From NCBI RefSeq assembly GCF_017348835.2, contig NZ_CP071375.1: a stretch of 64,000 nt of DNA. One strand, 5' to 3'. The notes under the pieces are model-generated. The model was not told the origin of the DNA. It saw only the letters and a list, made by a program, of their open reading frames with translations, and searched no databases. Shown here piece after piece: positions 46,769-64,000 of the stretch. This DNA comes from Escherichia coli (lineage in GTDB: Bacteria; Pseudomonadota; Gammaproteobacteria; Enterobacterales; Enterobacteriaceae). Positions within the stretch are counted from its first letter, which is position 1, and each line of letters begins with the position of its first letter. A program made the translations under genes and the position numbers.

Positions 46769-47010
46769 AGTTACCAGTCTCATAGGAGCGGACAATTTTC
46801 CGTTAGGGCGGTAAATTGTACTTTGATACATGAAAATACGGGTTTTCTTGATTCAGACGCGCAGCGGTGTGCATTTGTTTGCCGCTTTAGCGAAATAAAT
46901 CAGAAAATCAGACGCGGTCGTTCACTTGTTCAGCAACCAGATCAAAAGCCATTGACTCAGCAAGGGTTGACCGTATAATTCACGCGATTACACCGCATTG
47001 CGGTATCAAC

Positions 47011-47087
47011 GCGCCCTTAGCTCAGTTGGATAGAGCAACGACCTTCTAAGTCGTGGGCCGCAGGTTCGAATCCTGCAGGGCGCGCCA
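47011..47087 (+). tRNA. argU: tRNA-Arg (anticodon UCU)
   Basis: 77 nt gcgcccttagctcagttggatagagcaacgaccttctaagtcgtgggccgcaggttcgaatcctgcagggcgcgcca; cloverleaf with anticodon loop cuUCUaa. Confidence 0.95.
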
Positions 47088-47102
47088 TTACAATTCAATC
47101 AG

Positions 47103-48265
47103 TTACGCCTTCTTTATATCCTCCATAATTCCACAGTGGGACATATTTGGGACATGATCACCAAAAATGTCGTCTATTTTCCTTGCATGCTCTGTCAAAT
47201 GATTAGGCGCAAGGTGAGCATACCTACGAACCATTTCTATGGACTCCCATCCGCCCATTTCCTGAAGCACAGATAATGGGACGCCTGACTGGATCAGCCA
47301 GCTTGCCCAGGTGTGTCTGAGGTCATGGAAACGGAAATCTTCAATTCCTGCACGACGACAAGCTGATAGCCATGATGTCTTGCTGTCGATGCGCATCTTC
47401 CTGACCGCAGGCGTTGATGTTCCATCTGCTCGCTTAGCCGCCTTGGTATGTACAAACACCCATTTGTGATGCTTGCCTATTTGATCACGCAACACTTTAC
47501 AGGCGGTATCGTTCAGCGCCACACCAATGGCGCGGTTTGATTTGCTCTCTTCTGGATTCACCCAGGCAACTCGTCGCTGCATGTCGATTTGTTGCCATTC
47601 CAGATTTATGATGTTCGACTTTCTCAGACCAGTTGCCAGCGCAAACTTGACGACAGATTTCAGTGGTTCGGGGCACTCATCAATAAGGCGTTTTGCTTCC
47701 TCCTTTTCCAGCCATCTGACTCGCTTGTTTCTGACCGCTGGTATCTTGATGACAGGCGCTTTTTCCAGCCACTTCCAGTCGCGTTCTGCAGCACGGAGAA
47801 TGGCCTTTATCATGGCAAGATGCTTTGCCTTTGTCTGAGTTGATACTGGCTTTGGTTCATAAACAGGCGGTTCTTTACCTTTCCTGATGGCGGCCTGAAC
47901 TTTCTGTTTCCATATTTCTTTCGTCTTTCTGTTATGCATTCTGCTTACAGCAGAGTAAATCTTTGCCTCCGAGATATCTTTAAGCCTTATACCCTCAAAA
48001 TGTTCAAGCCAGAACTCAATCCGGCTTTTATCTGAATCGAGAGATTTTTATCAGCTTTTTCCTCAAGCCATCTTAGGCAGGCCTCTTCAAAAGTGACATC
48101 AGGTAAATCCCCTAGCTTTTCTACTCGCCAGAGTTCTGCTTTTCGCTTGTCGTGCAACTCCTGAGCTTGCCGCTTGTCCTTTGTGCCAAGAGATTCCTTA
48201 ATTCGTTTCCCGCCCGGGAGCGAATACGAGGCATACCATATTTCATTTCTGCGGAAGAGTGACAT
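47103..48265 (-). pseudogene. intD: tyrosine integrase, reading frame interrupted by a frameshift
   Basis: N-terminal 74 codons ([19 protein letters not shown]..., ORF 47987-48265) and C-terminal catalytic part (ORF 47103-47939, HxxR ... Y) are in different frames; the break is at a 5-nt homopolymer at 48045-48049. Confidence 0.8.
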
Positions 48266-48492
48266 TTTCTTTCCTCTGTTATGCCATCACCCGCGCTCAC
48301 CTGGACAGTATGCAGCGGAGACTGAAGCGCCGCAATGCAAGCTTGCCGTGTTGTGAGGTAAGGAGATTTTGGCTTGGTTGGATCTTTACGTGTTGCCTGT
48401 AGGCGGCCTGTTCGTATCCAGTTGGTGGCGGTTGGTCTGGATATCTTAAGAAACTGACAGGCCTCATCGAGTGTGAGGCTGTATGGCTCCAT
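48121..48492 (-). CDS. xis: excisionase-like (AlpA/Xis-type HTH) protein; 3' end overlaps int start
   Basis: Start [31 protein letters not shown] at 48492 (ATG overlaps upstream stop as TAATG); 3' boundary uncertain. Confidence 0.55.
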
Positions 48493-48797
48493 TATTTCAC
48501 CTCTTGCTGTGTCATTGTTGAAAAATGGATACCAGCTCGTTGCTGCCAGACGATCCAACCGAGAGTCATATCCCATGCCATGTATTCGTTATCGCCGTTT
48601 TTTGCTCTCCGACGATCTACTAAGTCACCGAAACGCTTTTCCATGAATAATTCATAGGCTTCGCGTTCATCTGGCTCTACTTCCAGAGATACGAGTGCGA
48701 TTTCATAAGCACGGCGCTCAATATCGTCTCGAACCTCTAGGCTGCTGATTCGTTCTTTGATTTCTTTAATCAGTTCTTTATTGGTAAATGTGGTCAT
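48492..48797 (-). CDS. hypothetical phage early protein (resembles CPS-53 YfdT position)
   Basis: 101 aa acidic ORF, coupled to neighbours. Confidence 0.55.
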   Translation of the reverse strand: MTTFTNKELIKEIKERISSLEVRDDIERRAYEIALVSLEVEPDEREAYELFMEKRFGDLVDRRRAKNGDNEYMAWDMTLGWIVWQQRAGIHFSTMTQQEVK

Positions 48798-49153
48798 TAT
48801 GCTCCAGCCTCCGGTGCTTTTGGCATTACTGCCCAGTGAGTGATATTGACGTTTTCAAGGTCCCCGACCTGAAATGTCCACTGCCATTCTCCGGTTTCTT
48901 TTTGTCCCCAGTTGTACCAGAGAGAACGCCAGCCAATCAGCCAGCCTTCTCCATTAGCATCAAATAACAGAACACTTTCATTTGCTGGTGGCAGTTCAGC
49001 TGACACTGGTATTATTTTGTTTTCCAGTGCCGCACATTTAGCTTCAAGCGCGTCGAATTTACGTAACAGGTACTCAGCATTTGTTTCGTTCACTTTCAGA
49101 TCTCGCGGTACACATTTCCCGCGAAGAAACCCTTCCATTTCGAAAACATTCAT
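48797..49153 (-). CDS. hypothetical phage protein (resembles CPS-53 YfdS position)
   Basis: ~118 aa; ATG at 49153 overlaps stop of upstream HD gene (ATGA). Confidence 0.55.
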   Translation of the reverse strand: MNVFEMEGFLRGKCVPRDLKVNETNAEYLLRKFDALEAKCAALENKIIPVSAELPPANESVLLFDANGEGWLIGWRSLWYNWGQKETGEWQWTFQVGDLENVNITHWAVMPKAPEAGA

Positions 49154-49686
49154 GCGCATTTGCGTAACTCCGATAAATCGTTAAAACGTTCCATAAACAT
49201 CCCGTAGGCATGACCCGGTGCCAGTGGAATCACGTTGAACATCTCTGTTGCCGGGATGCCTTCCAGTACAGGCCAGAAAGAGCCATCATCAAGCCCGAGA
49301 TCGCGGCGTTCGGTTGCCAGCATGATGAGATCGGCATATTTCACGGGTGTACTCATAACTAGGGGTAACCCGTATTTCTCACGGATTACGGCGTCTATTT
49401 TTTCTTCCATTTGTTTATAGTCAGGAAGAAGGCGTTTCAGTGGTGCGGGAATGTCCTGGCAATACGCTTCTGTTGCATCATGCATTAACGCTTCAAAAGC
49501 AAATTCCTGCGGCACCAGCTGGCTGCAAAGAACCGCATGTTGGGCGACGCTGTAGAAGTGCGAAAGATGACCGGCAAAGCGACAGATATTTGAAAGGGAA
49601 ACCGCGATATCGTTAATATCGATGTCGTCTTTATTTATCTTGTCATAATAAAAATGCTTCCCGGAAAAAGTTTTAATAAATGACAT
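49150..49686 (-). CDS. HD-domain phosphohydrolase (YfdR-like)
   Basis: 178 aa from MSFIKTF with GGAG 8 nt upstream; H...HD motif (ALMHDATEAY). Confidence 0.7.
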   Translation of the reverse strand: MSFIKTFSGKHFYYDKINKDDIDINDIAVSLSNICRFAGHLSHFYSVAQHAVLCSQLVPQEFAFEALMHDATEAYCQDIPAPLKRLLPDYKQMEEKIDAVIREKYGLPLVMSTPVKYADLIMLATERRDLGLDDGSFWPVLEGIPATEMFNVIPLAPGHAYGMFMERFNDLSELRKCA

Positions 49687-49813
49687 TTTGTTCTCCACGT
49701 ATATGCACTGCACCGCGCTGAATTCTGGTAAAAGGAAGCCCTCACCATCCGGTGATTATTGAGTTAATTACGTTTCCATAAATGCCCCCGCAGGGGCATT
49801 TGCAGTAATGAAA

Positions 49814-50638
49814 TCAGGCGGTGAAAGTACCAATAAAGGTTTCTACTTTGCTGTCTTTGAATTTCTCAACAAGCAGATCACGAAATTCGTTAGCCATTTC
49901 TTCCTGCACCGCTTCCAGCTGAATAATGCGCAGAACCAGTACAGGACGATCGCCAGTGATAATGCTGAGGCGTAATTTAAACGGACGTTCTTTCAGGCCT
50001 TCAAACGGAACGCATTTAAATTCAAATGCCACTGGCATAATGTCTTTGGTCTTCGCTTCGACAGACTCCATCAGGGAGCGTTTGCCGCTGAAGTCATTAT
50101 CTTCAAAATCAGCGGTCTGGTTTGCTTCAATCGTGATTTTACGGACTGCCGCAGCCGCTTTTGTTGCCTGAATGGCGTCACCATTAGCATCAAAGCCCAC
50201 AAGGTAGTCGGCCCAGTCTTCGATCCATTCTGCCAGTGACTTCTGGGAGTTACGCTCGCCGTTAACAGACAACAGAGCAGAGAACGGTGCTGTCTTTTTC
50301 AGTTTGAGAGTGGCAGTGTTATCTGCGTGACCTGGCTCATCAATAGTACCCAGGTTAAGCACACTGACGGCACGCATATTATCGGCATCGATAAAGCAGC
50401 GGGTGCCTTCATCTGCAAGATCTTTAGAATAACGGGTAAAATCATCGATGCAGGCAGTGGAAAGTGCACCACGGAAACGGAAGCGATTTAAATTAAATTT
50501 TTCCAGATCATGAATGCGGAAATTCTCAGGCAATGCCACAGCATCGGCACCAATCTTACTGATAATTTCATTAACACCCTGAGCAGAAATAAGGGCATGG
50601 ATTTGATTAATTGCAGTTGCGTCTAAGTTCTGAGACAT
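49814..50638 (-). CDS. DUF2303-type phage protein (YfdQ-like)
   Basis: 274 aa. Confidence 0.65.
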
Positions 50639-50703
50639 AATAAGTCCTCACTATATAAAGATATTCAGTGATGAGATAAATAATCAGTTTATTACGAACG
50701 ATA

Positions 50704-51066
50704 TTAACGACCTGCTGCGCGGAGTTTTCCGTCAGGTTCACCGGCAAGAGTCAGTAATTGTCCCTGGTCTTCCTGCAGAATAGTCAGGCGACCACCGCGA
50801 TTGACATACATCGGCGTTTCGGTGGTGTCTTCTTCGGAAATTTTCCCGCGGTTAGTCGGGCGAATATATGAGAGTTTGTGTTTGATTTTCACACGGTTCT
50901 CATCAAATGGTTCGATTTCCAGGTTGAGTGAGACCTTACCTTTGGTTTTCGTGTTCATCACACCGGAAGCGACTTCACTGAGAACTGCGCCGATTTTGGT
51001 TTCAAATACGCCGCCGTCCAGCTCCCCGATAAATGCCTGCACATCAGTACTGCGTTCGCTAGCCAT
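50704..51066 (-). CDS. hypothetical phage protein (YfdP-like), first gene of the leftward block
   Basis: 120 aa from MASERSTDVQ; GGAG upstream. Confidence 0.55.
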   Translation of the reverse strand: MASERSTDVQAFIGELDGGVFETKIGAVLSEVASGVMNTKTKGKVSLNLEIEPFDENRVKIKHKLSYIRPTNRGKISEEDTTETPMYVNRGGRLTILQEDQGQLLTLAGEPDGKLRAAGR

Positions 51067-51536
51067 TTTGCTGCTCCTCATCATATCGACCCTGCAAGGC
51101 CGATTAGTTTCTCCACAAAACAGAGAAGAACACCTGTGGTGGCCGCCGCCCGGATGGATTGGGTTATGAGCCCGTCGTCCGGTGATGCTCTTCTCTGTTT
51201 TGTAAAAAGGACGGTACCAGCCGGAAGCAAGGGTACAAGCTGGTACCGCCAGGACTACACACAGCATAAAGTTGTGGTGCCGGGTGCCCTCCCGGTGCCT
51301 GGCGAAGGTTGCACACCAGGCGGGTGGGTATCCACAGAAGGTCGACTGTCAGCCTCAACCTTAACCCGCGTGCGCTGAGCCGCATTCACCACAACGCTAA
51401 GGATTCTCTCTGGTTGAAAATACTTAGCTGTTATGTGCCTGCTTTTAGCCACATCAGGCGAGGTGGACCTGGTTATTCCCCAACAACAAGGATTCGGTTA
51501 ATCTGGATATCCCCAACAACAATAAGAGTATTCAAT

Positions 51537-52052
51537 GTGATCGCTGAATTAACGGCAGCAATGACGGCTATTCGTGAAACAGCCCAGATTGCAAAACTAA
51601 TGAACGAGGCAAAAACTCAAGCTGAAGTAAATGCGGCTATTGGTGAGCTGAACTCAAAGCTTGCGTCTATTCAGCGCGAATGCGTGTCTCTCGTTGAACT
51701 GGTGGGCTCTTATCAAGAAATAAATGCTTCTCTCAAAGCTAAAATTGCAGAATTCGAAAACTTTGAGGCTCAGACGGAAGGCTATATCCTTAACCAACTT
51801 GAGTCGGGTACTTTTGTATACTCGAAGGAGGTAATCGTGAACGGTGGCAGCATAACCATGCATCTTTGCCCAAAATGTTTTGGACAAAAGATAGTATCGA
51901 TACTTCAACCATTCCCGGTTAGCGAAGATGAGCTTTTTCATAAAAGCAGGTGCCTCCACTGTGAAAATAAGTTTCTGATGAATAAAAATCCGGATTACGT
52001 ATCGCCTCCATCCATTGAGGAGTTGTCCAGAAAACTTAACGGCAATCTGTAG
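51537..52052 (+). CDS. orphan protein: N-terminal heptad-rich helix plus C-terminal CxxC...CxxC zinc ribbon; convergent with pL
   Basis: ~171 aa from GTG 51537 (or 163 aa from ATG 51561); protein-like composition; own terminator at 52092-52115. Confidence 0.55.
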   Translation: MIAELTAAMTAIRETAQIAKLMNEAKTQAEVNAAIGELNSKLASIQRECVSLVELVGSYQEINASLKAKIAEFENFEAQTEGYILNQLESGTFVYSKEVIVNGGSITMHLCPKCFGQKIVSILQPFPVSEDELFHKSRCLHCENKFLMNKNPDYVSPPSIEELSRKLNGNL

Positions 52053-52091
52053 ATTACTACTGTTGTGGATATCCAGATTGTTAAAGAGCTA

Positions 52092-52115
52092 AGCGTCCTG
52101 TAGGGCGCTTTTTTG
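52092..52115 (+). terminator. intrinsic terminator of the orphan plus-strand gene
   Basis: agcgtcc tgta gggcgct followed by TTTTTT. Confidence 0.6.
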
Positions 52116-52280
52116 TTGCTAACGAATCATCCTGGACTTCATATGCCCCAGGCGGCTACTTCGTGGGCGTCCTGCCTGTTCGTTTTTGACATTTACTGAC
52201 TGCTTACGACACATGCACCGTGTTGCAACCAGATTTTGTTGTAATCCTGTAGTTGGTCTGGAACAAAAGATAAAATTAAA

Positions 52281-52317
52281 TTGCGAGATATGCAAGCGAT
52301 ATTTGCGAGGTATGCAA
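52281..52317. promoter_or_regulatory. OL-type operator pair with likely leftward promoter pL
   Basis: Two 15-bp sites ttgcgagatatgcaa and ttgcgaggtatgcaa, 22 bp apart, just past the 3' end of cI; same motif as sites between cI and cro. Confidence 0.55.
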
Positions 52318-52371
52318 ATTTATAGGTAGTAAAAAGCCACCTTTCGGTGGCCGATGGATGGGATATTGAGG

Positions 52372-53064
52372 TTAATTATGTCTCTTAAGGGTTTGCGACT
52401 GACTGATTAAGACCTTTCCAAAGACCATGAATCGGTGTTCGTTTTCGCTAGTAATTCCCCATTCACGGTAAATCTGGTTATCAGAAATCACCAGCAGTTT
52501 GTCAGGAATCATTTGAAGTCTTTTAACGTATATTTTGTCATCAAAACCAAAGACATATATACCATCACCATCAAACTGATTGATGCTGACATCAACGAAG
52601 ATGAGATCTCCTGGCTCAATGGTTGGACACATACTGTCCCCACGAACGTTGATAACTTTGATGTGATTGGCTGGTCGTCCGCCGAACATTGATACAGCAT
52701 TATCAGTTCTGTATTCGATGGCATGAATCACATCAATGACATCACCGCCCTGGATAAGGCCATTTCCCGCACTGGCACTGATATCCAGCATTTCAATACG
52801 GAACACATCCTTCACCTGCGCAACATCCTCATTATTACTGTTTTTATATACAGTATTACTTTTGTGGGCAGAGGTAAAGAGATCAGCAATATCAACACCT
52901 AAGCTCTTGGCAATATTACTCAGTGTTTGTTCGGTAAATTGTTTTTGCTTACCCGTTTCTAAGCGCGAGATGTTCGCCGCATCTACTCCTATTGCTTCAG
53001 CGAGATCGGCGATTTTCATGTTCTTCGCTTGGCGAAGTTGTCTGACTCGGTTTCCTATGTTCAT
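52372..53064 (-). CDS. cI: CI-type prophage repressor (XRE HTH plus S24 LexA-like peptidase domain)
   Basis: 230 aa; N-terminal HTH (MKIADLAEAIGVDAANISRLETGK); C-terminal GDSM ... K peptidase motif. Confidence 0.85.
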   Translation of the reverse strand: MNIGNRVRQLRQAKNMKIADLAEAIGVDAANISRLETGKQKQFTEQTLSNIAKSLGVDIADLFTSAHKSNTVYKNSNNEDVAQVKDVFRIEMLDISASAGNGLIQGGDVIDVIHAIEYRTDNAVSMFGGRPANHIKVINVRGDSMCPTIEPGDLIFVDVSINQFDGDGIYVFGFDDKIYVKRLQMIPDKLLVISDNQIYREWGITSENEHRFMVFGKVLISQSQTLKRHN

Positions 53065-53084
53065 GCGTTTATTACATTTCTTTA

Positions 53085-53147
53085 TTGCGTGATAAGCAAA
53101 TCAACTTGCGCAAAATAATTGCGTGAAATAACATGCATAACGCGCAA
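53085..53147. promoter_or_regulatory. OR operator region with divergent pRM/pR
   Basis: ttgcgtgataagcaa (53085-53099), ttgcgcaa core, atgcataacgcgcaa (53133-53147) between divergent cI and cro. Confidence 0.55.
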
Positions 53148-53161
53148 TATTTGGAGGGCAT

Positions 53162-53422
53162 ATGCAATCACCATTACGAAATGTGCGTAAGGCGCATGGT
53201 TTCACTTTGCAGCATGTTGCTGCGGGTGTTCAAGTCAATCCAGCGACGTTGAGTCGTATTGAGAGGCTGGAGCAGATTCCATCTATCGAGCTTGCAGAAC
53301 GTTTAGCCAATTTTTTTAAGGGTGAAGTCAGCGAAATGCAGATTCTTTATCCGGCACGTTTTCAATCTAGCCAAAACCAGAATGGGTTTAAACCACAGGA
53401 ACAGGAGGTGAACCGTGGGTAA
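53162..53422 (+). CDS. cro: Cro-like HTH regulator
   Basis: 86 aa; HTH (GFTLQHVAAGVQVNPATLSRIE); GGAGGG upstream; divergent from cI. Confidence 0.75.
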   Translation: MQSPLRNVRKAHGFTLQHVAAGVQVNPATLSRIERLEQIPSIELAERLANFFKGEVSEMQILYPARFQSSQNQNGFKPQEQEVNRG

Positions 53423-53966
53423 GCATCACTGGAAAGTAGAAAAACAGCCTGAGTGTTACGTGAAAGCTGTCAGAAAAACTATCGCAGCGTTGCCGGGGGG
53501 GTACGCTGAAGCTGCTGACTGGCTGGATGTAACAGAGAACGCATTATTTAACCGCCTTCGTGCCGATGGCGATCAGATTTTCCCGCTGGGATGGGCAATG
53601 ATTTTGCAACGTGCTGGTGGAACTCACTTCATTGCTGACGCTGTGGCGCAGTCTGCAAATGGCGTCTTTGTGTCTCTTCCTGATGTCGAGGATGTGGACA
53701 ACGCCGATATCAACCAACGCCTGCTGGAAGTCATTGAACAGATCGGCAGTTATTCAAAACAGATTCGTTCAGCAATTGAAGACGGTGTAGTGGAACCGCA
53801 TGAGAAGACAGCAATTAACGATGAGCTGTACCTCTCAATTTCGAAGCTGCAGGAGCATGCAGCACTGGTCTACAAAATCTTTTGCGTTTCAGAAAGTAGT
53901 GACGCCCGCGAGTGTGCAGCTCCGGGCGCCGTGGCGTGTCGTGACTGTGGAGAAACTAACGCATGA
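53415..53966 (+). CDS. CII-like / YdaT-like regulatory protein
   Basis: 183 aa; position after cro; overlaps cro end. Confidence 0.55.
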
Positions 53967-54301
53967 ACAGTTTAACAACACACTACCGTCGCTCGCAACT
54001 GATTGCGCTTCCTGTACCGGGTGGAAAAGCGAAGGTGGAGTATTGCTATGCAGTAAATGTACCAGGTGACAGGGAAATTGTAACCCACAGCTTTGCAGAG
54101 TGGGCTGTGGGTGATTTCAACCGGCAGAAGGAGACAGTCCTTTGCGACAAGTTAACCGCTGGTTCAAAGATCACTACGGAGTGCCCGTCAGAGTCATTCG
54201 TTGGGAGCCGGAAACACAACGGGTTATCTACCTCCGTGAAGGCTATGAGCATGAGTGCTTCAGCCCGCTCGAACAGTTTCGTCGTAAATTCAGGGAAATA
54301 G
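53963..54301 (+). CDS. hypothetical protein; 3' half may belong to an alternative frame (possible frameshift or two small coupled genes)
   Basis: 112 aa ORF; a second frame from TTG 54142 to stop 54318 gives protein-like ...[55 protein letters not shown]. Confidence 0.4.
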
Positions 54302-54310
54302 AGGTCGGTC

Positions 54311-55252
54311 ATGAGCACTAAATTAACCGGCTATGTATGGGATGGTTGCGCTGCGTCAGGCATGAAATTATCCAGCGTGGCAATTATGGCCCGCCTGGCT
54401 GATTTCAGTAATGACGAAGGTGTGTGCTGGCCATCAATTGAAACCATTGCCCGTCAGATTGGCGCGGGGATGAGTACCGTCAGAACGGCTATCGCACGGC
54501 TGGAAGCAGAAGGCTGGTTAACGCGTAAGGCGCGTCGCCAGGGTAACCGCAATGCGTCGAATGTTTATCAGCTTAACGTTGCGAAGCTTCAGGCAGCGGC
54601 ATTTTCTCAACTGTCAGATTCTGACCCGTCAAAATCTGACGCATCAAAATCTGACCCGTCAAAATTTGATGCGTCGAAATCTGGCAAAAAAGCGGGTTTT
54701 CACCCGTCAGAATCTGGCGGGGATCCGTCAGTAAAATCAAAACATGATCCGTCAGATAAAAAAACTTCTCGTCCGGACGCTTCGCAACCGGACACGCAGA
54801 AGGCTGAACAGGAGTTTTTAACTCGCCATCCTGATGCGGTTGTATTCAGCCCTAAAAAGCGCCAGTGGGGAACGCAGGATGATTTGACCTGCGCACAGTG
54901 GCTCTGGAAAAAAATCATCGCCCTGTACGAGCAGGCCGCCGAATGTGACGGCGAGGTGGTTCGTCCCAAAGAACCGAACTGGACAGCCTGGGCAAACGAA
55001 ATTCGCCTGATGTGTGTGCAGGATGGTCGTACTCACAAACAAATCTGCGAGATGTACAGCCGCGTCAGCCGCGATCCGTTCTGGTGCCGTAACGTGCTCA
55101 GCCCGTCGAAGCTGCGGGAAAAATGGGATGAGCTTTCCCTGCGCTTATCGCCGTCCGTCAGCACGTACACCGAAAAACGCGAAGACCCGTACTTCAAAGC
55201 CAGTTACGACAACGTGGACTACAGCCAGATCCCGGCAGGATTCAGGGGGTGA
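54311..55252 (+). CDS. replication initiator (O-like; N-terminal winged-helix; C-terminal region possibly YdaU/DUF1376-like) with internal origin iterons
   Basis: 313 aa; central repeat-encoded low-complexity region; position after cII. Confidence 0.65.
   Translation: MSTKLTGYVWDGCAASGMKLSSVAIMARLADFSNDEGVCWPSIETIARQIGAGMSTVRTAIARLEAEGWLTRKARRQGNRNASNVYQLNVAKLQAAAFSQLSDSDPSKSDASKSDPSKFDASKSGKKAGFHPSESGGDPSVKSKHDPSDKKTSRPDASQPDTQKAEQEFLTRHPDAVVFSPKKRQWGTQDDLTCAQWLWKKIIALYEQAAECDGEVVRPKEPNWTAWANEIRLMCVQDGRTHKQICEMYSRVSRDPFWCRNVLSPSKLREKWDELSLRLSPSVSTYTEKREDPYFKASYDNVDYSQIPAGFRG
54620..54762. repeat. putative replication origin: ~7 iteron copies (core CCGTCAG) followed by an A-rich tract
   Basis: tctgacccgtcaaaa / tctgacgcatcaaaa / tctgacccgtcaaaa / tttgatgcgtcgaaa tandem 15-mers plus cacccgtcagaatctgg, gatccgtcagtaaaatc, gatccgtcagataaaaaaa. 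Confidence 0.6.
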
Positions 55253-55254
55253 TC

Positions 55255-55743
55255 ATGAGTCTTTTGAATGACGTTCAGAAATTCATTGAAGCCCATCCGG
55301 GCTGTACTTCCGGAGACATTGCGGATGCTTTTGCAGGTTACTCACGGCAGCGCGTTCTGCAGTCAGCAAGCAAGTTACGTCAGAGTGGGCGTGTGGCTCA
55401 CCGTTGTGAAGGAGATACACACAGACATTTCCCGCGCCTGACTGAGAGAGCGCAGGATCCGGAACCACAACCAGTTCGTGAAACCAGACCTGTGCGCAAT
55501 TTCTATGTCGGCACTAACGACCCGCGGGTGATTTTGTGCCTGACCCGCCAGGCGGAAGAACTGGAGTCCAGGGGCTTATACCGTCGTGCTGCAACGGTGT
55601 GGATGGCGGCATTCCGTGAAAGCCACTCCCAGCAAGAGCGAAACAATTTTCTTGCGCGTCGTGAGCGGTGTTTACGGAAAAGCAGCAAGCGCGCTGTATC
55701 GGGTGAAGAGTGGTATCTGTCAGGGAATTACGTGGGGGCTTAA
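55255..55743 (+). CDS. hypothetical regulator, possibly PerC-family-like
   Basis: 162 aa from MSLLNDVQ; GGGGG 7 nt upstream; basic C-terminus with LYRRAATVWMAAF motif. Confidence 0.4.
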   Translation: MSLLNDVQKFIEAHPGCTSGDIADAFAGYSRQRVLQSASKLRQSGRVAHRCEGDTHRHFPRLTERAQDPEPQPVRETRPVRNFYVGTNDPRVILCLTRQAEELESRGLYRRAATVWMAAFRESHSQQERNNFLARRERCLRKSSKRAVSGEEWYLSGNYVGA

Positions 55744-56069
55744 TGACGACGTTAACTCAATGCCAGCAGCAGGTGCTGGATATGCTGATTTCTTACCAGA
55801 AAGAACGTGGCTTCCCGCCAACCAATCAGGAGGTGGCTACCATGCTGGGATACCGTTCAGTGAATGCAGCGGTGGAGCATCTTCGCGCACTGGAGAAAAA
55901 AGGCGTCATCACGATAAAGCGTGGCGTGGCCCGGGGCATCACGCTTCATACCGCGGTGAAGGACGACGACAGCGAGGTGGCCGGGATTATCCGCGCACTG
56001 CTTGCTGGTGAGGAAAACGCCAGGCTGCGTGCAACCCACTGGTTACATGAGAGGGGCCTGAAAGTATGA
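55743..56069 (+). CDS. LexA N-terminal DNA-binding-domain-only paralogue (no S24 peptidase domain)
   Basis: 108 aa MTTLTQCQQQVLDMLISYQKERGFPPTNQEVATMLGYRSVNAAVEHLRALEKKGVITIKRGVARGITL aligns along the whole LexA winged-helix domain ([68 protein letters not shown]). Confidence 0.7.
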   Translation: MTTLTQCQQQVLDMLISYQKERGFPPTNQEVATMLGYRSVNAAVEHLRALEKKGVITIKRGVARGITLHTAVKDDDSEVAGIIRALLAGEENARLRATHWLHERGLKV

Positions 56070-56455
56070 AGCTGATCCTGCCTTTTCCGCCCAGCGTGAA
56101 CACGTACTGGCGACACCCCAACAAAGGGGCGTTTGCTGGTAAGAGCCTGATAAGCGCGGCGGGGCGAAAATTCCAGAGCGCGGCGTGCGCAGCAATAGTT
56201 GAGCAGTTACGTCGTCTGCCGAAACCAACGTCGGCACCTGCTTCAGTGGAGATCGTGTTGTTTCCTCCGGATAACAGGATCCGCGATCTGGACAACTATA
56301 ACAAGGCGCTGTTTGACGCCCTGACCCACGCGGGGGTGTGGGAAGACGACAGTCAGGTGAAAAGAATGCTGGTGGAGTGGGGACCGGTTATCCCGGAAGG
56401 GAAGGTCGAGATCACTATCAGTAAGTACGAGAAAACGGCGGGTGCAGCTGCCTGA
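56066..56455 (+). CDS. rusA: Holliday junction resolvase RusA
   Basis: 129 aa; LPFPPSVNTYW ... DLDN motifs. Confidence 0.85.
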   Translation: MKLILPFPPSVNTYWRHPNKGAFAGKSLISAAGRKFQSAACAAIVEQLRRLPKPTSAPASVEIVLFPPDNRIRDLDNYNKALFDALTHAGVWEDDSQVKRMLVEWGPVIPEGKVEITISKYEKTAGAAA

Positions 56456-56474
56456 TCAAGAGGAGAAACGAAGT

Positions 56475-57284
56475 ATGAATAATCTGATGGTCATTGATGG
56501 TATTGAAGTTCGTCGTGATGCTTATGGGCGTTACAGCCTGAACGATCTGCATCGCGCAGCAGTAGCATCTGGTGCAAATGCCAGAACCAAGGAGCCAGGA
56601 AAGTTTCTTTCCAGCCAACAAACTGTTGAGCTTGTTCATGAATTAACCAACACCCAGAATTTGGGTGTTGACCCGGTGAGTGTGATTCATGGGGGAAATG
56701 AACGGGGAACGTATGTCTGTAAGGAACTGGTGTATGCCTATGCAATGTGGATCAGCCCGTCATTCCATCTGAAGGTGATCCGTACTTTCGATATGGTAAC
56801 CAGCGCGCCGGAAAAGTTATCCGGACAGGTTGCTGACAAGATGCAGGCTGGCGTGATTCTGCTGGACTTTATGCGCCGGGAGTTAAATCTGTCTAACTCA
56901 TCTGTGCTTGGGGCCTGTCAGAAACTCCAGGAGGCTGTTGGCTTACCGAATCTGGCACCGCGCTATGCCATTGATGCACCTGCTGACGCGCCTGATGGCT
57001 CAAGCCGCCCGACGCTGTCGCTGAGTGCACTGCTGAAGCAGTATGGTATCCGCCTGACGGCTAATCAGGCATATCACCAGATGGCGAAGCTGGGGATCGT
57101 TGAACAACGCGAACGATACAGCCGTACCGCGATTAACAACATCAAAAAATTCTGGTCGCTGACAGCGAAAGGTTGCATGTTCGGCAAGAACATCACCAGT
57201 CCCGCAAATCCGCGCGAGACGCAGCCGCATTTCTTCGAATCCCGATTCCCTGAGCTGTTAAAGCTGCTCGATACCGTTCATTGA
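56475..57284 (+). CDS. KilA-N domain protein (putative antirepressor-like)
   Basis: 269 aa from MNNLMVIDGIEVRRDAYGRYSLNDLHRAA; AGGAG upstream. Confidence 0.65.
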   Translation: MNNLMVIDGIEVRRDAYGRYSLNDLHRAAVASGANARTKEPGKFLSSQQTVELVHELTNTQNLGVDPVSVIHGGNERGTYVCKELVYAYAMWISPSFHLKVIRTFDMVTSAPEKLSGQVADKMQAGVILLDFMRRELNLSNSSVLGACQKLQEAVGLPNLAPRYAIDAPADAPDGSSRPTLSLSALLKQYGIRLTANQAYHQMAKLGIVEQRERYSRTAINNIKKFWSLTAKGCMFGKNITSPANPRETQPHFFESRFPELLKLLDTVH

Positions 57285-57285
57285 G

Positions 57286-58281
57286 GTGAACGTGAGAGCG
57301 CTACTGACCCCCGAGATTGCCCCGCGTATGGGGATCGTATTGTTCAGACCCGGTTCAGAGCTGATGCCCCTGTTTATGCAGGGGCGTGTCCTGCTGGAGC
57401 CTGAGCCGGAACGTTATTCATCTTTTGCCAGTGGTGCCGTTCCGGCTGCATCACAACCGCTGGCGGATGATCCTGCCGTTCGGGCCGTGTTCCGCAATGA
57501 GGCAGTGATCCGTCGTGCTGGTGGCGTGGAATGTCTTGAAAGCTGGTTACTTCGTGAAAAAGGCTGCCAGTGGCCTCATTCCGACTGGCACAGCGAGAAC
57601 ATGACCACAATGCGACACGCGCCGGGCGCAATCCGTCTGTGCTGGCACTGCGATAACCAACTGCGCGATCAGTTCACGGAACGGCTGGAATCAATGGCAA
57701 CGGATAACTGTGCCCGCTGGGTGTTGTCTGTTGTGCGTCGGGATCTCGGTTTTGATGACAGTCACGTTGTGACAATGCCGGAACTGTGCTGGTGGCTGAT
57801 TCGTAATGATCTGGCGGATACCTTACCGGAAAGTGCAGCCCGTAAGGCACTGAGATTACCGAAGCCTTTTGTGCCGTCTGTCACCCGGGAAAGTGACCTG
57901 GTGCCTTCGGTTCCTGCCACCAGCATCATCCAGAATAAAGCGAAAAAGGTGCTGGCGCTGAAAGTGGATCCGGAGTCGCCGGACTCTTTTATGTTACGCC
58001 CAAAACGTCGCCGCTGGGTTAATGAAAAGTACACGCGATGGGTTAAGACGCAGCCGTGCGCATGTTGTGGAAAACCTGCTGATGATCCCCACCACCTGAT
58101 AGGCCACGGTCAGGGTGGAATGGGGACAAAAGCGCATGACCTCTTTGTGTTGCCTTTGTGCAGAAAGCATCACGACGAGCTGCATGCGGATACTGTGGCA
58201 TTCGAAGAGAAGTATGGCTCCCAGCTGGAGCTGATATTTCGTTTTATCGATCGTGCGCTGGCGATTGGTGTGCTGGCCTGA
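57286..58281 (+). CDS. DUF968 (YdfU-like) protein with C-terminal Cys/His cluster
   Basis: 331 aa; [12 protein letters not shown] ... CRKHHDELH. Confidence 0.65.
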
Positions 58282-58298
58282 TTTTGTGGAGAAAGTTG

Positions 58299-58682
58299 AT
58301 GCGTGATATTCAGATGGTTCTTGAGCGTTGGGGAGCGTGGGCGGCTAATAATCATGAAGATGTGACTTGGTCGTCCATTGCCGCCGGTTTTAAGGGATTA
58401 ATTCCTTCAAAAGTAAAATCTCGCCCACAATGTTGTGACGATGACGCGATGATCATTTGCGGGTGCATGGCCCGTCTGAAAAAGAACAACAGCGACTTGC
58501 ACGATTTATTAGTAGATTATTATGTAGTCGGTATGACATTCATGTCACTGGCAGGTAAGCATTGCTGCTCTGATGGTTATATCGGGAAAAGGTTACAGAA
58601 GGCTGAGGGCATAATTGAAGGGATGTTAATGGCATTAGATATCCGGTTAGAGATGGATATCGTTGTTAATAACTCTAATTAA
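58299..58682 (+). CDS. quuD: late-gene antiterminator Q
   Basis: 127 aa from [18 protein letters not shown]; Cys-rich zinc-binding region. Confidence 0.8.
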
Positions 58683-58870
58683 TATGCCAATTGTTTACTA
58701 AAAATTATTAAAAATGGGGCGTTGCAACGCCCCCAAAAATAAAGGGTAATATATAACAGAAGGTTTATATAGTTAGAAGCAAGGTTGTGCTCCTAAAGGA
58801 AGTGGCTTGAGGGAGCCACTTATATGTTGGGGAGGCAAAGCCTCCCGCAACATATCTTTTAGTAATCAAA

Positions 58871-59953
58871 TTAGAACTGGTAAACCATACCTACAGCAAC
58901 GATATCATCGGTAGCAACGCCAGATGCTTTCGTGAAATCGCTCTTATCAATCAGGTTGATTTTGTAATCAACAAAAGTGGACATATTTTTGTTGAAGTAA
59001 TAGGTTGCACCTACATCAATATATTCAACCAGGTCCTGATCACCCCACGCACCCAAGTCTTTTCCTTTAGATTGCAGGTAAGCAACGGACGGACGCAGAC
59101 CGAAGTCGAACTGATATTGTGCAACTACTTCGAAGTTTTGTGCTTTGTTGGCAATATGGTTATTACCAAAAACAGTCATGTTCTGGGTTTCAGAATAGGT
59201 GGTAGCCAGATAGATGTTGTTCGCATCATATTTCAGACCAGCTGCCCATACTTCAGCATTTTGACCAGATGCATTCAGGCTGTTGTTACCGTAGATAACC
59301 TGATTATTAGTGCGGTCAGATTTAGCATAGGTTGCACCTACACCGAATCCTTCATACTCATACGTAGTGGAGAAACCGAAACCATCACCATTAGCTTCAG
59401 TTACGTCAGTGCGGTCATTTTTACCCTGATACTGAGCAGCAAAGTTCAGACCATCAACCAGACCAAAGAAGTCGTTGTTACGATAAGTTGCAACACCAGT
59501 GGTGCGACCAGTCATGAACACATCTGTTTGGGTCCAGGTATCGCCACCGAATTCTGGCAGAACGTCAGTCCACGCACCGATGTCATATGCTACACCGTAG
59601 TTACGGCCGTAATCGATTGAGCCGTAGTCCCCGAATTTCAGGCCTGCAAATGCAAGACGGGTTTTGTCTTTGGAGGAGCCTTGAGATTCAGCGCGGTTGC
59701 CTTTGAATTCATATTCCCACTGACCGAAACCAGTCAGTTGATCGTTGATTTGGGTTTCACCTTTGAAGCCAAGACGGGCATAAGTAGTATCACCATCATC
59801 TGCATCATTAGAGGAGAAGTAGTGCTTGGCATTAACTTTCCCATATAGATCCAGCTTGTTACTGTCTTTATTATAAATTTCAGCTGCCTGAGCAGACATC
59901 GCCATCAGTACTGATGCGGCTACAGCAGAAATTGCCACTGTTAATTTTTTCAT
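58871..59953 (-). CDS. nmpC: prophage-encoded outer membrane porin (OmpC/OmpF family), uninterrupted
   Basis: 360 aa; signal peptide; C-terminal ...VGMVYQF beta-barrel signature. Confidence 0.9.
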
Positions 59954-60541
59954 CGTGAGCCCTTTTTTTTGAACTATTATTAAAAAATGATGTCACTGCG
60001 CGATAAATATTCATCTAATCAATGTGATTATTTCAAGATGTAAGTTTTAGTTTCTCATTTAATTTGTGAGGTAGATCTCTATTTTTATCTGAACTTTTTC
60101 TATCGAAACCTATTTATGGCTCTTATTTGAACAAAAATAAACCTATTAGCTAATTTATATTAATGGCTGTTATTTATGGAGGTTCTATAATTCGGCGGTT
60201 TAATTTAAATCAACTAAAAATAACGGCGGAAATTATTTGTAGGATATTTGTTGAGGTTTTCTTATGTATTTGTGGTGGTGTTTTGAACACTCGGTAGCAT
60301 TCTCATAAATATCATTCAGTGGTTTACGTACGTAAAAAATTGGTTATGCTGTTAAGAGTGGTTACTTCGTCACACAGCTTAAACCCGCCGTCGAGCTGGT
60401 TTTTCCATTTTTTGAGTCTCGATATTAGCTGATAACTCAATACCTGAGTTATTCACTGACTCCGAGTCTGTTACGTTTCTGCTTTTTTGCGATACGTTGT
60501 ATTCCCTCAATTTACACCCGCTTTGTCTGCGAGGTGGGGTT

Positions 60542-60757
60542 ATGAAATCCATGGATAAGTTAACAACGGGTGTCGCCTATGGCACCTCAGCAGGTAGTGC
60601 CGGTTACTGGTTTTTACAGCTGCTCGATAAAGTTACGCCCTCACAGTGGGCAGCAATAGGTGTGCTGGGTAGCCTGGTATTTGGCCTGCTGACGTACCTG
60701 ACAAACCTTTATTTCAAGATTAAAGAAGATAAGCGCAAGGCTGCGAGAGGTGAATAA
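60542..60757 (+). CDS. essD: holin (class II, phage 21 S-like)
   Basis: 71 aa from MKSMDKL; two TM segments; stop overlaps lysozyme ATG. Confidence 0.85.
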
Positions 60758-61254
60758 TGCCTCCATCATTACGAAAAGCCGTTGCTGCTGCTATTGGTGG
60801 CGGAGCAATTGCTATAGCATCAGTGTTAATCACTGGCCCAAGTGGTAACGATGGTCTGGAAGGTGTCAGCTACATACCATACAAAGATATTGTTGGTGTA
60901 TGGACTGTATGTCACGGGCATACAGGAAAAGACATCATGCTCGGTAAAACGTATACCAAAGCAGAATGCAAAGCACTCTTGAATAAAGACCTTGCCACTG
61001 TCGCCAGACAAATTAACCCGTACATCGAAGTCGATATACCGGAAACAACGCGCGGCGCTCTTTACTCATTCGTTTACAACGTGGGTGCTGGCAATTTCAG
61101 AACATCGACGCTTCTTCGCAAAATAAACCAGGGCGATATCAAAGGCGCATGTGATCAGCTACGTCGCTGGACATACGCTGGCGGTAAGCAATGGAAAGGC
61201 CTGATGACTCGCCGTGAGATTGAGCGTGAAATCTGTTTGTGGGGTCAGCAATGA
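60757..61254 (+). CDS. rrrD: phage lysozyme (endolysin)
   Basis: 165 aa; N-terminal SAR-like hydrophobic segment; lysozyme motifs. Confidence 0.88.
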
Positions 61255-61712
61255 ACAGAGTAACCGCGATTATCTCCGCTCTGGTTATCTGCATCATCGT
61301 CTGCCTGTCATGGGCTGTTAATCATTACCGTGATAACGCCATTACCTACAAAGCCCAGCGCGACAAAAATGCCAGAGAACTGAAGCTGGCGAACGCCACC
61401 ATTACTGACATGCAGCAGCGCCAGCGTGATGTTGCTGCACTGGATGAAAAATACACGAAGGAGTTAGCTAATGCGAAAGCTGAAAATGATGCTCTGCGTG
61501 ATGATGTTGCCGCTGGTCGTCGTCGGTTGCACATCAAAGCAGTCTGTCAGTCAGTGCGTGAAGCCACCACCGCCTCCGGCGTGGATAATGCAGCCTCCCC
61601 CCGACTGGCAGACACCGCTGAACGGGATTATTTCACCCTCAGAGAGAGGCTGATCACTATGCAAAAACAACTGGAAGGAACCCAGAAGTATATTAATGAG
61701 CAGTGCAGATAG
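61251..61712 (+). CDS. rzpD: i-spanin (Rz)
   Basis: 153 aa from [18 protein letters not shown]-terminal TM plus coiled coil. Confidence 0.85.
61471..61653 (+). CDS. rzoD: o-spanin lipoprotein (Rz1) embedded in +1 frame of Rz
   Basis: 60 aa; lipobox VVVGC; proline-rich. Confidence 0.8.
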
Positions 61713-61743
61713 AGCTGCCCATATCGATGGGCAACTCATGCAA

Positions 61744-62037
61744 TTATTGTGAGCAATACACACGCGCTTCCAGCGGAGTATAAATGCCTAAAGTAATAAA
61801 ACCGAGCAATCCATTTACGAATGTTTGCTGGGTTTCTGTTTTAACAACATTTTCTGCGCCGCCACAAATTTTGGCTGCATCAACAGTTTTCTCCTGTCCA
61901 ATTCCCGAAACGAAGAAGTGATGGGTGATGGTTTCCTTTGGTGTTACTGCTGTCGGTTTGTTTCCAACAGTAAACGTCTGTTGAGCACATCCTGTAATAA
62001 GCATTGCCAGAGCGGCAGAAAACAACATTTTTTTCAT
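61744..62037 (-). CDS. borD: Bor-family lipoprotein
   Basis: 97 aa from MKKMLFSAALAMLITGC. Confidence 0.88.
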   Translation of the reverse strand: MKKMLFSAALAMLITGCAQQTFTVGNKPTAVTPKETITHHFFVSGIGQEKTVDAAKICGGAENVVKTETQQTFVNGLLGFITLGIYTPLEARVYCSQ

Positions 62038-62399
62038 CTTATTATCCTGCATTGTTAAAAACGGCAGAATCCTATGTGACAACAATTAAACGATAATTAA
62101 ATGGATTGATGAAAATTAAAACTATATAGGTGTACGCTCAGACTATTGGAGGAAGTTGGGGACACTCAGAATCCTGTGGAATGAAATAAACCGGTCTATC
62201 CGTCTATTACCCTTTTAGCTGCGCTGTATCGTCGCCGTATTCCCGCATTAACCATGACCGTAGCCCGACGGGGAATTCCTTCTGCGTGAGTGTGCGGGAA
62301 TAATCAAAAACGATGCACACCGGGTTTTACTGTGCTGACAGACGCAGGGTTACCCTCATAGTCGCTTTTCCGGTGCGATGGTGGAAGAAACCGGGATGT

Positions 62400-62594
62400 T
62401 TATTCATCATCACTTTGGATTGATGTATATGCTCTCTTTTCTGACGTTAGTCTCCGACGGCAGGCTTCAATGACCCAGGCTGAGAAATTCCCGGACCCTT
62501 TTTGCTCAAGAGCGATGTTAATTTGTTCAATCATTTGGTTAGGAAAGCGGATGTTGCGGGTTGTTGTTCTGCGGGTTCTGTTCTTAGTTGACAT
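62400..62594 (-). CDS. ribbon-helix-helix small protein (YlcI/DUF3950-like)
   Basis: 64 aa; basic N-terminus then RHH-like NIRFPNQMIEQINIALEQKG. Confidence 0.6.
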   Translation of the reverse strand: MSTKNRTRRTTTRNIRFPNQMIEQINIALEQKGSGNFSAWVIEACRRRLTSEKRAYTSIQSDDE

Positions 62595-62780
62595 GAGGTT
62601 GCCCCGTATTCAGTGTCGCTGATTTGTATTGTCTGAAGTTGTTTTTACGTTAAGTTGATGCAGATCAATTAATACGATACCTGCGTCATAATTGATTATT
62701 TGACGTGGTTTGATGGCGTAGATGCACGTTGTGACATGTAGATGATAATTATTATCATTTTGCGGGTCCTTTCCGGCGAT

Positions 62781-62810
62781 CCGACAGGTTACGGGGCGGC
62801 GACCTCGCGG
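62781..62810. other. lambda-type cos site (cosN with 12-nt cohesive end GGGCGGCGACCT at 62793-62804)
   Basis: ccgacaggttacg|gggcggcgacct|cgcgggttttcgc matches the lambda cohesive-end junction as recalled; cosB-like region follows before Nu1. Confidence 0.8.
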
Positions 62811-62982
62811 GTTTTCGCTATTTATGAAAATTTTCCGGTTTAAGGCGTTTCCGTTCTTCTTCGTCGTAACTTAATGTTTTTATTTAAAACACCCTCTGAA
62901 AAGAAAGGAAACGACAGGTGCTGAAAACGAGCTTTTTGGCCTCTGTCGTTTCCTTTCTCTGTTTTTGTCCGTGGAATGAACA

Positions 62983-63528
62983 ATGGAAGTCAACAAAAAG
63001 CAGCTGGCTGACATTTTCGGCGCGAGTATCCGTACCATTCAGAACTGGCAGGAGCAGGGAATGCCCGTTCTGCGGGGTGGTGGCAAGGGTAATGAAGTGC
63101 TTTATGACTCTGCCGCCGCCATAAAATGGTATGCCGAAAGGGATGCTGAAATTGAGAACGAAAAGCTGCGCCGGGAAGTTGAAGAACTGCGGCAGGCCAG
63201 CGAGACAGATCTCCAGCCAGGGACTATTGAGTACGAACGCCATCGACTTACGCGTGCGCAGGCCGACGCACAGGAGCTGAAAAATGCCAGAGACTCCGCT
63301 GAAGTGGTGGAAACCGCATTCTGTACTTTCGTGCTGTCGCGGATCGCAGGTGAAATTGCCAGTATTCTCGACGGGATCCCCCTGTCGGTGCAGCGGCGTT
63401 TTCCGGAACTGGAAAACCGACATGTTGATTTCCTGAAACGGGATATCATCAAAGCCATGAACAAAGCAGCCGCGCTGGATGAACTGATACCGGGGTTGCT
63501 GAGTGAATATATCGAACAGTCAGGTTAA
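62983..63528 (+). CDS. nohD: terminase small subunit (lambda Nu1-like)
   Basis: 181 aa MEVNKKQLADIFGASIRTIQNWQEQGMPVLRGGGKGNEV..., lambda Nu1-like along full length. Confidence 0.92.
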   Translation: MEVNKKQLADIFGASIRTIQNWQEQGMPVLRGGGKGNEVLYDSAAAIKWYAERDAEIENEKLRREVEELRQASETDLQPGTIEYERHRLTRAQADAQELKNARDSAEVVETAFCTFVLSRIAGEIASILDGIPLSVQRRFPELENRHVDFLKRDIIKAMNKAAALDELIPGLLSEYIEQSG

Positions 63529-64000
63529 CAGGCTGCGGCATTTTGTCCGCGCCGGGCTTCGCTCACTGTTCAGGCCGGAGACACAGACCGCCGTTGAATG
63601 GGCGGATGCCAATTACTATCTCCCGAAAGAATCCGCATACCAGGAAGGGCGCTGGGAAACACTGCCCTTTCAGCGGGCCATCATGAATGCGATGGGCAGC
63701 GACTACATCCGCGAGGTGAATGTGGTGAAGTCTGCCCGTGTTGGTTATTCCAAAATGCTGTTGGGTGTTTATGCCTACTTCATAGAGCATAAGCAGCGCA
63801 ACACCCTTATCTGGTTGCCGACGGATGGCGATGCCGAGAACTTTATGAAAACCCACGTCGAGCCGACCATCCGTGATATTCCATCGCTGCTGGCGCTGGC
63901 CCCGTGGTATGGCAAAAAGCACCGGGATAACACGCTCACCATGAAGCGTTTCACCAATGGGCGTGGTTTCTGGTGCCTGGGCGGTAAAGCGGCAAAAAAC
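63506..64000 (+). CDS. terminase large subunit (lambda A-like), N-terminal part; continues beyond window
   Basis: GTG at 63506 overlapping Nu1 end; translation VNISNSQVNRLRHFVRAGLRSLFRPE... Confidence 0.85.

Follow-up and report, generated by a model that had tools for sequence, protein, structure and literature searches.

A probable 43-kb lambdoid prophage at the argU site of Escherichia coli and the conserved RNA that opens its leftward early transcript

A stretch of 64,000 nucleotides of Escherichia coli DNA, referred to here as the window, was examined from position 47088 to its end. Very probably, it is the segment from integrase to terminase of a single lambdoid prophage of 43 kb, which is inserted in argU, where K-12 carries DLP12. 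The prophage is full length and apparently functional. Lambdoid prophages of this kind are already known, near-identical relatives have been deposited, and the patchwork is ordinary; mosaic lambdoid prophages are textbook material. Its wider interest is limited to an unannotated, conserved RNA at the start of the leftward early transcript. This RNA is almost certainly a genuine structure and is tentatively proposed as a substitute for the N antiterminator.

Integration site and genome plan

Strain PE164 (NZ_CP114128.1), an E. coli from pig, is 100% identical to window positions 46500-64000. Upstream of the prophage lie the host genes sfmD-fimH-sfmF-fimZ, followed by argU (47011-47087, + strand), according to the RefSeq annotation. 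ARAGORN and Rfam (tRNA, 72 bits) also identify argU as the host tRNA-Arg(UCU) gene, of which the 3' part is the attachment site. Since argU ends at 47087, position 47088 is the first prophage base. The attL core (47043-47089) consists of 47 bp from the 3' end of argU that are repeated in direct orientation, with an exact second copy at NZ_CP114128.1 3569144-3569190, between envY and ompT. The element between the two att repeats measures 43,214 bp. Based on the matching att pair and the right border by ompT, 47088-64000 makes up the leftmost 17 kb of a single element of 43 kb, with 26 kb located beyond the window end. DLP12 of K-12 likewise occupies argU, has an identical 47-bp att repeat and ends at the corresponding right border by ompT; in site, intD and borders, the two agree.

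The order of modules follows the lambda genome plan. The int and xis genes lie beside att, and cI lies between divergent early operons with related operators. A Q-type antiterminator gene is found 5' of a holin-endolysin-spanin cassette, followed by cos and the Nu1/A packaging genes. An arrangement of two adjacent or nested elements, e.g. a satellite or island beside a lambda prophage, is highly improbable. The early region is indeed unlike that of lambda, and ompT, together with genes for a hydrolase and a methyltransferase, is carried as cargo inside the att repeats. However, the element has only one att pair, one int/xis pair, one cI, one Q and one cos, and its order is collinear with packaged 46-kb phage genomes.

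Comparison with known phages

Those packaged genomes are PhiR29_1 and PhiR29_2 (PV340556 and PV340557), which share the gene order from int to the terminase and onward and are collinear at 95-99.6% identity over 88% of the region. For PhiR29_1, the identity is 99.6% over 47063-52187, 96.7% over 53387-55746, 94.9% over 55743-62091 and 97.6% over 62383-64000. The cI/cro segment (52188-53386) is unrelated, with e14-type immunity in PhiR29_1 and the SfII type in this prophage. PhiR29_1 also has a Dam methylase gene, ybcV and ybcW, whereas this prophage lacks all three. A literature search found no paper on PhiR29. Among complete E. coli genomes, 186 carry 80% or more of the region at a single locus. 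The arrangement recurs in pig and human isolates that are unrelated (99.5% identity) and in O103:H2 strains (97.4%).

Shigella phage SfII is 98.7% identical over 52121-55746, a segment covering the RNA motif of the pL leader, oL, cI, cro, the cII-like gene, ymfM, O and yfdN. From there onward to Q (55743-58345) the identity is 93.9%. This comparison covered the left arm to Q, the SfII virion and serotype-conversion modules lying outside it. SfII differs in its left arm, which has 86% identity and lacks yfdQ and yfdP, and in its shorter Q.

Compared with DLP12, the identity is 99.3% over 47000-48360 (intD), 91-97% over 58264-62091 (quuD-borD; 97.1% over 58264-58912 and 91.5% over 58929-62091) and 97.9% for ylcI-nohD. 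DLP12 itself is a remnant of 21 kb that is interrupted by IS3 and IS5 and lacks head and tail genes. Its early region (exoD, renD, emrE, ybcK-ybcO, ninE and K-12 rusA) differs, showing no DNA match to 48361-58263. Compared with CPS-53 (KpLE1), two blocks match: yfdT-yfdP (48430-51085) at 97.7% and yfdO-yfdN (54544-55746) at 98.5%, the latter figure also applying to yfdN by itself. CPS-53 differs in occupying argW, with IntS/TorI and gtr genes (yfdGHI), as opposed to argU and intD here, where no gtr genes are annotated. The third K-12 element, e14, shares the ymfH region (89% over 51077-51466), the RNA motif of the pL leader and ymfL-ymfM-oweE, at 86-95% (95% over 53387-54544 and 95.3% for ymfL-ymfM). 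It differs in its icd site with IntE, and it breaks off at window position 54544.

CPS-53 lacks exactly 51086-54544, nearly the segment that e14 retains. The oweE/aaaE junction of e14 and the end of the CPS-53 deletion fall on the same phosphodiester, 54544/54545, in the O gene and 55 nt before its first iteron. That deletions in two cryptic prophages end at precisely one nucleotide position suggests that it might be a hot spot for breaks.

Lambda is 94-98% identical from 61251 to the window end. The similarity comprises Rz, bor, cos, Nu1, A and the head-tail module through J, besides the overall genome plan. Its int, cI, Q, holin and endolysin are of unrelated types, and its O protein shows 30% identity. 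The LLS group described in 2025 (PMC12315714) shares the left operon with yfdR, yfdQ and yfdP, has neither a Rec module nor N, carries O as its sole replication gene and has 21-type lysis, and the prophage can be placed with this group on those features. The DNA identity is only 66-76%, however, and the RNA motif was looked for in LLS and not found. The group is also characterized by at least 12 Chi sites, compared with six in this prophage, at 48984, 53613, 56368, 57517 and 57788 (+) and at 57917 (-). All six are located in the non-lambda early region, five of them on the top strand, while the lambda-like arm has none, as in lambda. This distribution fits a Chi-rich LLS-type early region joined to a Chi-free lambda-type late region.

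A preliminary description of this DNA had pictured a mosaic of CPS-53-like, DLP12-like and lambda-like blocks, and the similarities it named are real. The five leftward genes after xis are indeed homologues of yfdT, yfdS, yfdR, yfdQ and yfdP, and their lengths of 101, 120, 178, 274 and 120 amino acids agree with those it gave. The DLP12-like Q-nmpC-essD-rrrD-rzpD/rzoD-bor block is present in its entirety. The lambda-like cos/Nu1/A region is confirmed as well: the 12-nt cosN GGGCGGCGACCT (62794-62805) has the same sequence as the lambda genome ends, and an identity to lambda of 96-97.6% extends over the cos flanks, Nu1 and the first part of A, although cos and Nu1 are equally near DLP12 nohD (97.9%). 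What has to be revised is the extent of the CPS-53-like DNA, which is not confined to the left genes since it also covers yfdO-yfdN, and the idea of an unusual hybrid of K-12 elements, given that the prophage is of a common full-length lambdoid type. The description had named a single well-known phage with the same gene order as the observation that would speak against it, and PhiR29_1/2 largely provide one, with cI/cro, the Dam methylase, ybcV and ybcW as the differences.

The K-12 elements DLP12, CPS-53 and e14 are not the parents of this prophage but the fragments that decay has left of similar phages. The block borders relative to the K-12 elements are sharp, as would be expected of a recent hybrid between resident DLP12-like and CPS-53-like prophages that is specific to PE164. 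Such an origin is nevertheless barely credible in view of the unrelated pig and human isolates, the O103:H2 strains and the 186 genomes with this arrangement. In addition, the free phages PhiR29_1/2 have the matching order, and CPS-53 is itself a deletion derivative of the early module. Instead, the patchwork very probably arose where related phages recombined at short stretches of conserved sequence. A crossover lies inside the RNA motif of the pL leader, where PhiR29-type DNA passes into SfII-type DNA (breakpoints 52187 and 52121), and another inside xis, where the joint between CPS-53-like and DLP12-like DNA lies between 48361 and 48429. The prophage is of value as an intact reference for the state of K-12 DLP12, CPS-53 and e14 before their decay.

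Integrity of the prophage

The int gene (47103-48265, -) encodes an intD-type tyrosine integrase with 99.3% identity to K-12 intD and is frameshifted according to the Prokaryotic Genome Annotation Pipeline (PGAP). The sole gap relative to K-12 intD is a 1-nt deletion in an A6 run (window position ~48049, nucleotide 217 of the gene), shifting the reading frame after codon 72. The gene may truly be inactivated, or the homopolymer may have been misassembled. If it is real, the PE164 prophage could not excise on its own. This frameshift weighs against an apparently full-length, functional prophage, as does the lack of ybcV, ybcW and the Dam methylase of its relatives. Furthermore, a loader-less start of replication and the leftward passage of a terminator-like hairpin are steps that we only infer.

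A cryptic, immobile remnant like DLP12, locked in the chromosome by the int frameshift and with decay already begun, is possible but rather unlikely. It would account for the deletion at the A6 run, for a second gene that PGAP calls frameshifted (51081-51392) and for the loss of ybcV/ybcW. However, all genes other than int, from xis through the tail fibres, are full length; what PGAP takes for a second frameshifted gene is more probably RNA (see below); the loss of a single base in a homopolymer may be an assembly error; and sister prophages at 99.5% identity are annotated with an intact intD.

An apparently functional prophage would, based on the known biology of these families, behave as follows. 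DNA damage would lead to cleavage of cI, upon which pL and pR would fire. The O protein would open the origin and recruit the host helicase without a phage-encoded loader. Next, Q would turn on the lysis and virion genes, and the terminase would cut at cos. The prophage also carries a virulence-relevant porin, bor/iss and ompT in a pig pathogen.

Early functions missing relative to lambda

N-less lambdoid phages such as HK022, SfII and LLS are a known variant. A tblastn search with 19 lambda proteins (E<=0.01) gave one meaningful match, O, in addition to a marginal 40-amino acid cII match on the cI strand (E 0.009). No match was obtained for N, P, cIII, Gam, Bet, Exo, Kil, Ren or NinB. Lambda has N with its nut sites, cIII, Gam/Bet/Exo, P, Ren and NinB, whereas this prophage lacks them. 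Left of cI, the only candidates for an N-like open reading frame (ORF) are of 65 and 73 amino acids, without family match, and both overlap the RNA region. Pfam and PHROG searches found no lambda_P, DnaC or DnaB domain, helicase or loader in any ORF from cI to Q; O and its iterons are present, and no P/DnaC/DnaB partner was found there. The same databases revealed no Rec module among the early-left genes (48492-51066). The preliminary description had reported neither N nor a P/DnaC-type loader between cI and Q. Both are indeed absent, but N would not be expected in that interval: lambda carries it to the left of cI, where this prophage has none either.

This architecture has precedents. SfII, SfIV and SfV were reported without cIII and N (PMC3851460). 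According to the 2025 LLS study (PMC12315714), O-only replication occurs in 34 of 314 lambdoid phages and is called unstudied, early antitermination in LLS-type phages 'may' rely on put RNA, and the substitutes for N and for the helicase loader are both not known. The N-less, O-only architecture is thus already described for SfII/SfIV/SfV and the LLS group (PMC3851460, PMC12315714).

RNA motif at the start of the leftward transcript

A structured RNA motif of 65 nt is located at 52123-52189 (-), with two covarying helices around the invariant core GGCAGGACGCCCACGAAGUAGC and a covariance model score of 95.9 bits. It is conserved, just left of the repressor gene, in ~60 deposited temperate phages, where it has never been annotated. 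Their hosts belong to at least eight genera, comprising Escherichia, Shigella, Salmonella, Klebsiella, Citrobacter, Yersinia, Pectobacterium and Pantoea. In viral contigs, exact-match scanning detected at least 120 motif loci with 103 distinct variants. Among complete E. coli genomes, 1,856 of 5,426 (34%) contain the motif. K-12 is one of its carriers, in e14, between ymfK and ymfJ (NC_000913.3 1202100-1202187, -; 74 bits).

The motif is close to certain to be a genuine, selected RNA structure. In its helices, 93.9% of the cells are paired, compared with 20-46% when the partners are slid. Double changes occupy 140 cells versus 42 in shuffles, none of the 500 shuffles being as high, and RNAalifold recovers the two covarying helices. 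The exact-match search accounts for part of the invariance of the core, and blastn matches show an identical core. Folding of the pL leader as a single sequence was uninformative (z-score 0.18). A scan of the whole region against Rfam 15 returned no match to the motif, only the tRNA, an STnc100 match below threshold and chance microRNA hits. The core sequence was not found in print in any of the papers searched.

The first helix is preceded at most loci by a good promoter, which ends 13-17 nt ahead of it, and the motif consequently forms the 5' end of the pL transcript. Of 129 loci, 73 have a cI-like ORF that ends upstream of the motif on its strand, at a median distance of 115 nt. Each phage has a single copy, always on the pL side, and a second, rightward copy was found neither in the window nor in 100 related loci. 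No partner protein is encoded beside the motif, the first downstream ORFs falling into 49 unrelated clusters. An invariant core without an accompanying phage protein points to a host ligand.

Our leading hypothesis, put forward tentatively and by analogy with put, is that the motif represents an undescribed class of cis-acting RNA replacing N, which might allow the polymerase from pL to resist Rho and the terminator-like hairpin located 5' of yfdP. The put RNAs of HK022 are likewise structured RNAs of ~65-70 nt that open the pL transcript of an N-less lambdoid phage and act with no phage protein (PMC9378689). Terminator read-through promoted in cis by put is blocked when the zinc-binding domain of the RNA polymerase beta' subunit is mutated. 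An antiterminator on this side only is plausible because the packed rightward operon needs none, while the leftward transcript crosses ~1.2 kb of untranslated RNA antisense to a Rip1-like gene, and this leader includes a strong hairpin followed by U5 (~51249 down to 51206). There are also differences. HK022 put consists of two side-by-side stem-loops (PMC9378689), in contrast to the closing helix with two inner hairpins of the motif, and HK022 has copies after both pL and pR. Identification as a put RNA by similarity was rejected, as neither sequence nor model comparison matched the motif to putL/putR of HK022 or to the putL-like and M3-like RNAs of HK639. Alternatively, the motif might be a leader that binds a host factor, or an RNA-stability element. 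As a put-like antiterminator, it would be a concrete candidate for the N substitute in a common N-less, loader-less phage type, and one that is present in laboratory K-12.

Other features of the leftward leader

An exact rrn-type boxA, GCUCUUUAACAA, is found at 52078-52089 (-), 29 nt past the motif on the leftward transcript, and is the sole exact copy in the window. Its inclusion as an integral part of the motif was rejected, since only 17 of 115 motif contexts (15%) have it, all with one cassette type and terminator.

The Rip1-like gene (51537-52052, +) is oriented against the pL operon and encodes 171 amino acids with a coiled coil and a zinc ribbon (PDB 9oox_L, E 2.7e-7; phrog_1244). Residues 14-150 align to 28-159 of Rip1, a protein of ~165 amino acids, with both CxxC pairs matched. 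Based on this alignment, the product is a distant homologue of Rip1, with a putative role in defence. Rip1 is a prophage defence protein reported to sense the small terminase, to bind its rings and to block incoming phages (PMC12908700; bioRxiv 10.64898/2026.04.30.721860). PADLOC gave nothing meaningful for ten accessory proteins, the Rip1-like one matching no model. Inverted repeats of 26 nt lie on either side of the gene (51500-51525 and 52054-52079), and its terminator is located at 52091-52110; other phages hold different cassettes in this slot.

Further along the leader lies a structured RNA region (51201-51425, -) that resembles both STnc100, a family of prophage sRNAs (Rfam RF02076, full length, 36.5 bits, E 6e-6), and the e14 ymfH region. 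At 36.5 bits it stays below the RF02076 gathering score of 47 and is not counted as a member of STnc100. Its fold of -27.3 kcal/mol has a z-score of -3.9, and at its end a hairpin of 13 bp with U5 after it resembles a terminator. The pseudogene called by PGAP at 51081-51392, as a frameshifted hypothetical gene, is more likely this RNA region than a decayed gene. After the terminator-like hairpin, and directly upstream of yfdP, a long hairpin with 23 bp is found at 51108-51209.

Immunity, early operons and replication

On the left arm, xis (48121-48492, -; Pfam HTH_17, 1.2e-8) is absent from the annotation. It is followed by the homologues of yfdT (48492-48797), yfdS (DUF551, 48797-49159), yfdR (an HD 5'-deoxynucleotidase, 49150-49686), yfdQ (DUF2303, 49814-50638) and yfdP (50704-51066), all on the - strand and assigned to families by Pfam, PHROG and RefSeq names.

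The oL operators TTGCGAGATATGCAA and TTGCGAGGTATGCAA (52281-52317) belong to a repeat family, D1, common to oR and overlap the presumed pL promoter, the position of which we infer to be at oL. The cI repressor gene (52372-53064, -), of the SfII immunity type, encodes a helix-turn-helix (HTH) domain and a self-cleaving S24 peptidase (Pfam Peptidase_S24, 6e-19; HTH_3), and its terminator is located at 52335-52352. The oR operators and the pR/pRM region (53085-53146) contain TTGCGTGATAAGCAA and related 15-mers. Next come cro (86 amino acids), a cII-like YmfL gene (183 amino acids) and ymfM (112 amino acids) at 53162-54301 (+; Pfam HTH_3 and Phage_CP76; phrog_101 and phrog_1170). These three ORFs overlap or abut, leaving no room for nutR or tR1, and the ORFs of the rightward operon do so throughout from cro to Q. 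The ymfM gene (53963-54301, phrog_1170) overlaps an out-of-frame DUF4222 ORF of 59 amino acids (54142-54321, +), and both are supported by family matches. PGAP annotates the DUF4222 ORF rather than ymfM, which in the K-12 annotation is a cell division inhibitor.

The lambda-O-type replication initiator (54311-55252, +; phrog_391, 1.7e-135; HTH_36) has 313 amino acids, and its identity of 30% to lambda O extends over 216 amino acids, including the C-terminal domain. Within its gene, ~6-7 copies of GTCAAAATCTGAC with a 15-bp period (54599-54721) form the origin iterons. Downstream, at 55249-58281 (+), Pfam and PHROG identify genes for YfdN (PerC-like), a protein with a LexA DNA-binding domain, a RusA resolvase, a KilA-N protein and a DUF968/HNH nuclease. 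Searches against solved structures with the O-like protein, YfdN and YmfM gave no useful match.

Late region

The late antiterminator QuuD (58299-58682, +; Pfam Phage_antitermQ, 8.5e-54) is 97% identical to that of DLP12. It is followed by an intact NmpC/OmpC-type porin gene of 360 codons (58871-59953, -; Pfam Porin_1, 3e-153), in contrast to nmpC of K-12 DLP12, which is broken by IS5. The lysis cassette (60542-61712, +; Pfam Phage_holin_2_1, Phage_lysozyme and Phage_lysis) is of the phage-21 pinholin type and not of the lambda type. It comprises the pinholin gene essD, the lysozyme gene rrrD and the spanin gene rzpD, with rzoD (61471-61653) embedded in the latter. The bor/iss gene for a serum-resistance lipoprotein (61744-62037, -; Pfam Lambda_Bor, 6e-31) is 93.7% identical to that of lambda. 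At 62092-62382, ybcV and ybcW, both present in lambda, DLP12 and PhiR29_1, are replaced by ~290 bp, of which only 110 bp (62217-62327) showed a match, at 83% identity. The terminase genes (62983-64000, +; Pfam Phage_Nu1, 5.5e-101, and GpA_ATPase) consist of Nu1 and the first 165 codons of A, which is cut by the window end. Beyond it, a complete lambda head-tail module extends through J, with 97.6% identity to lambda over 18.5 kb.

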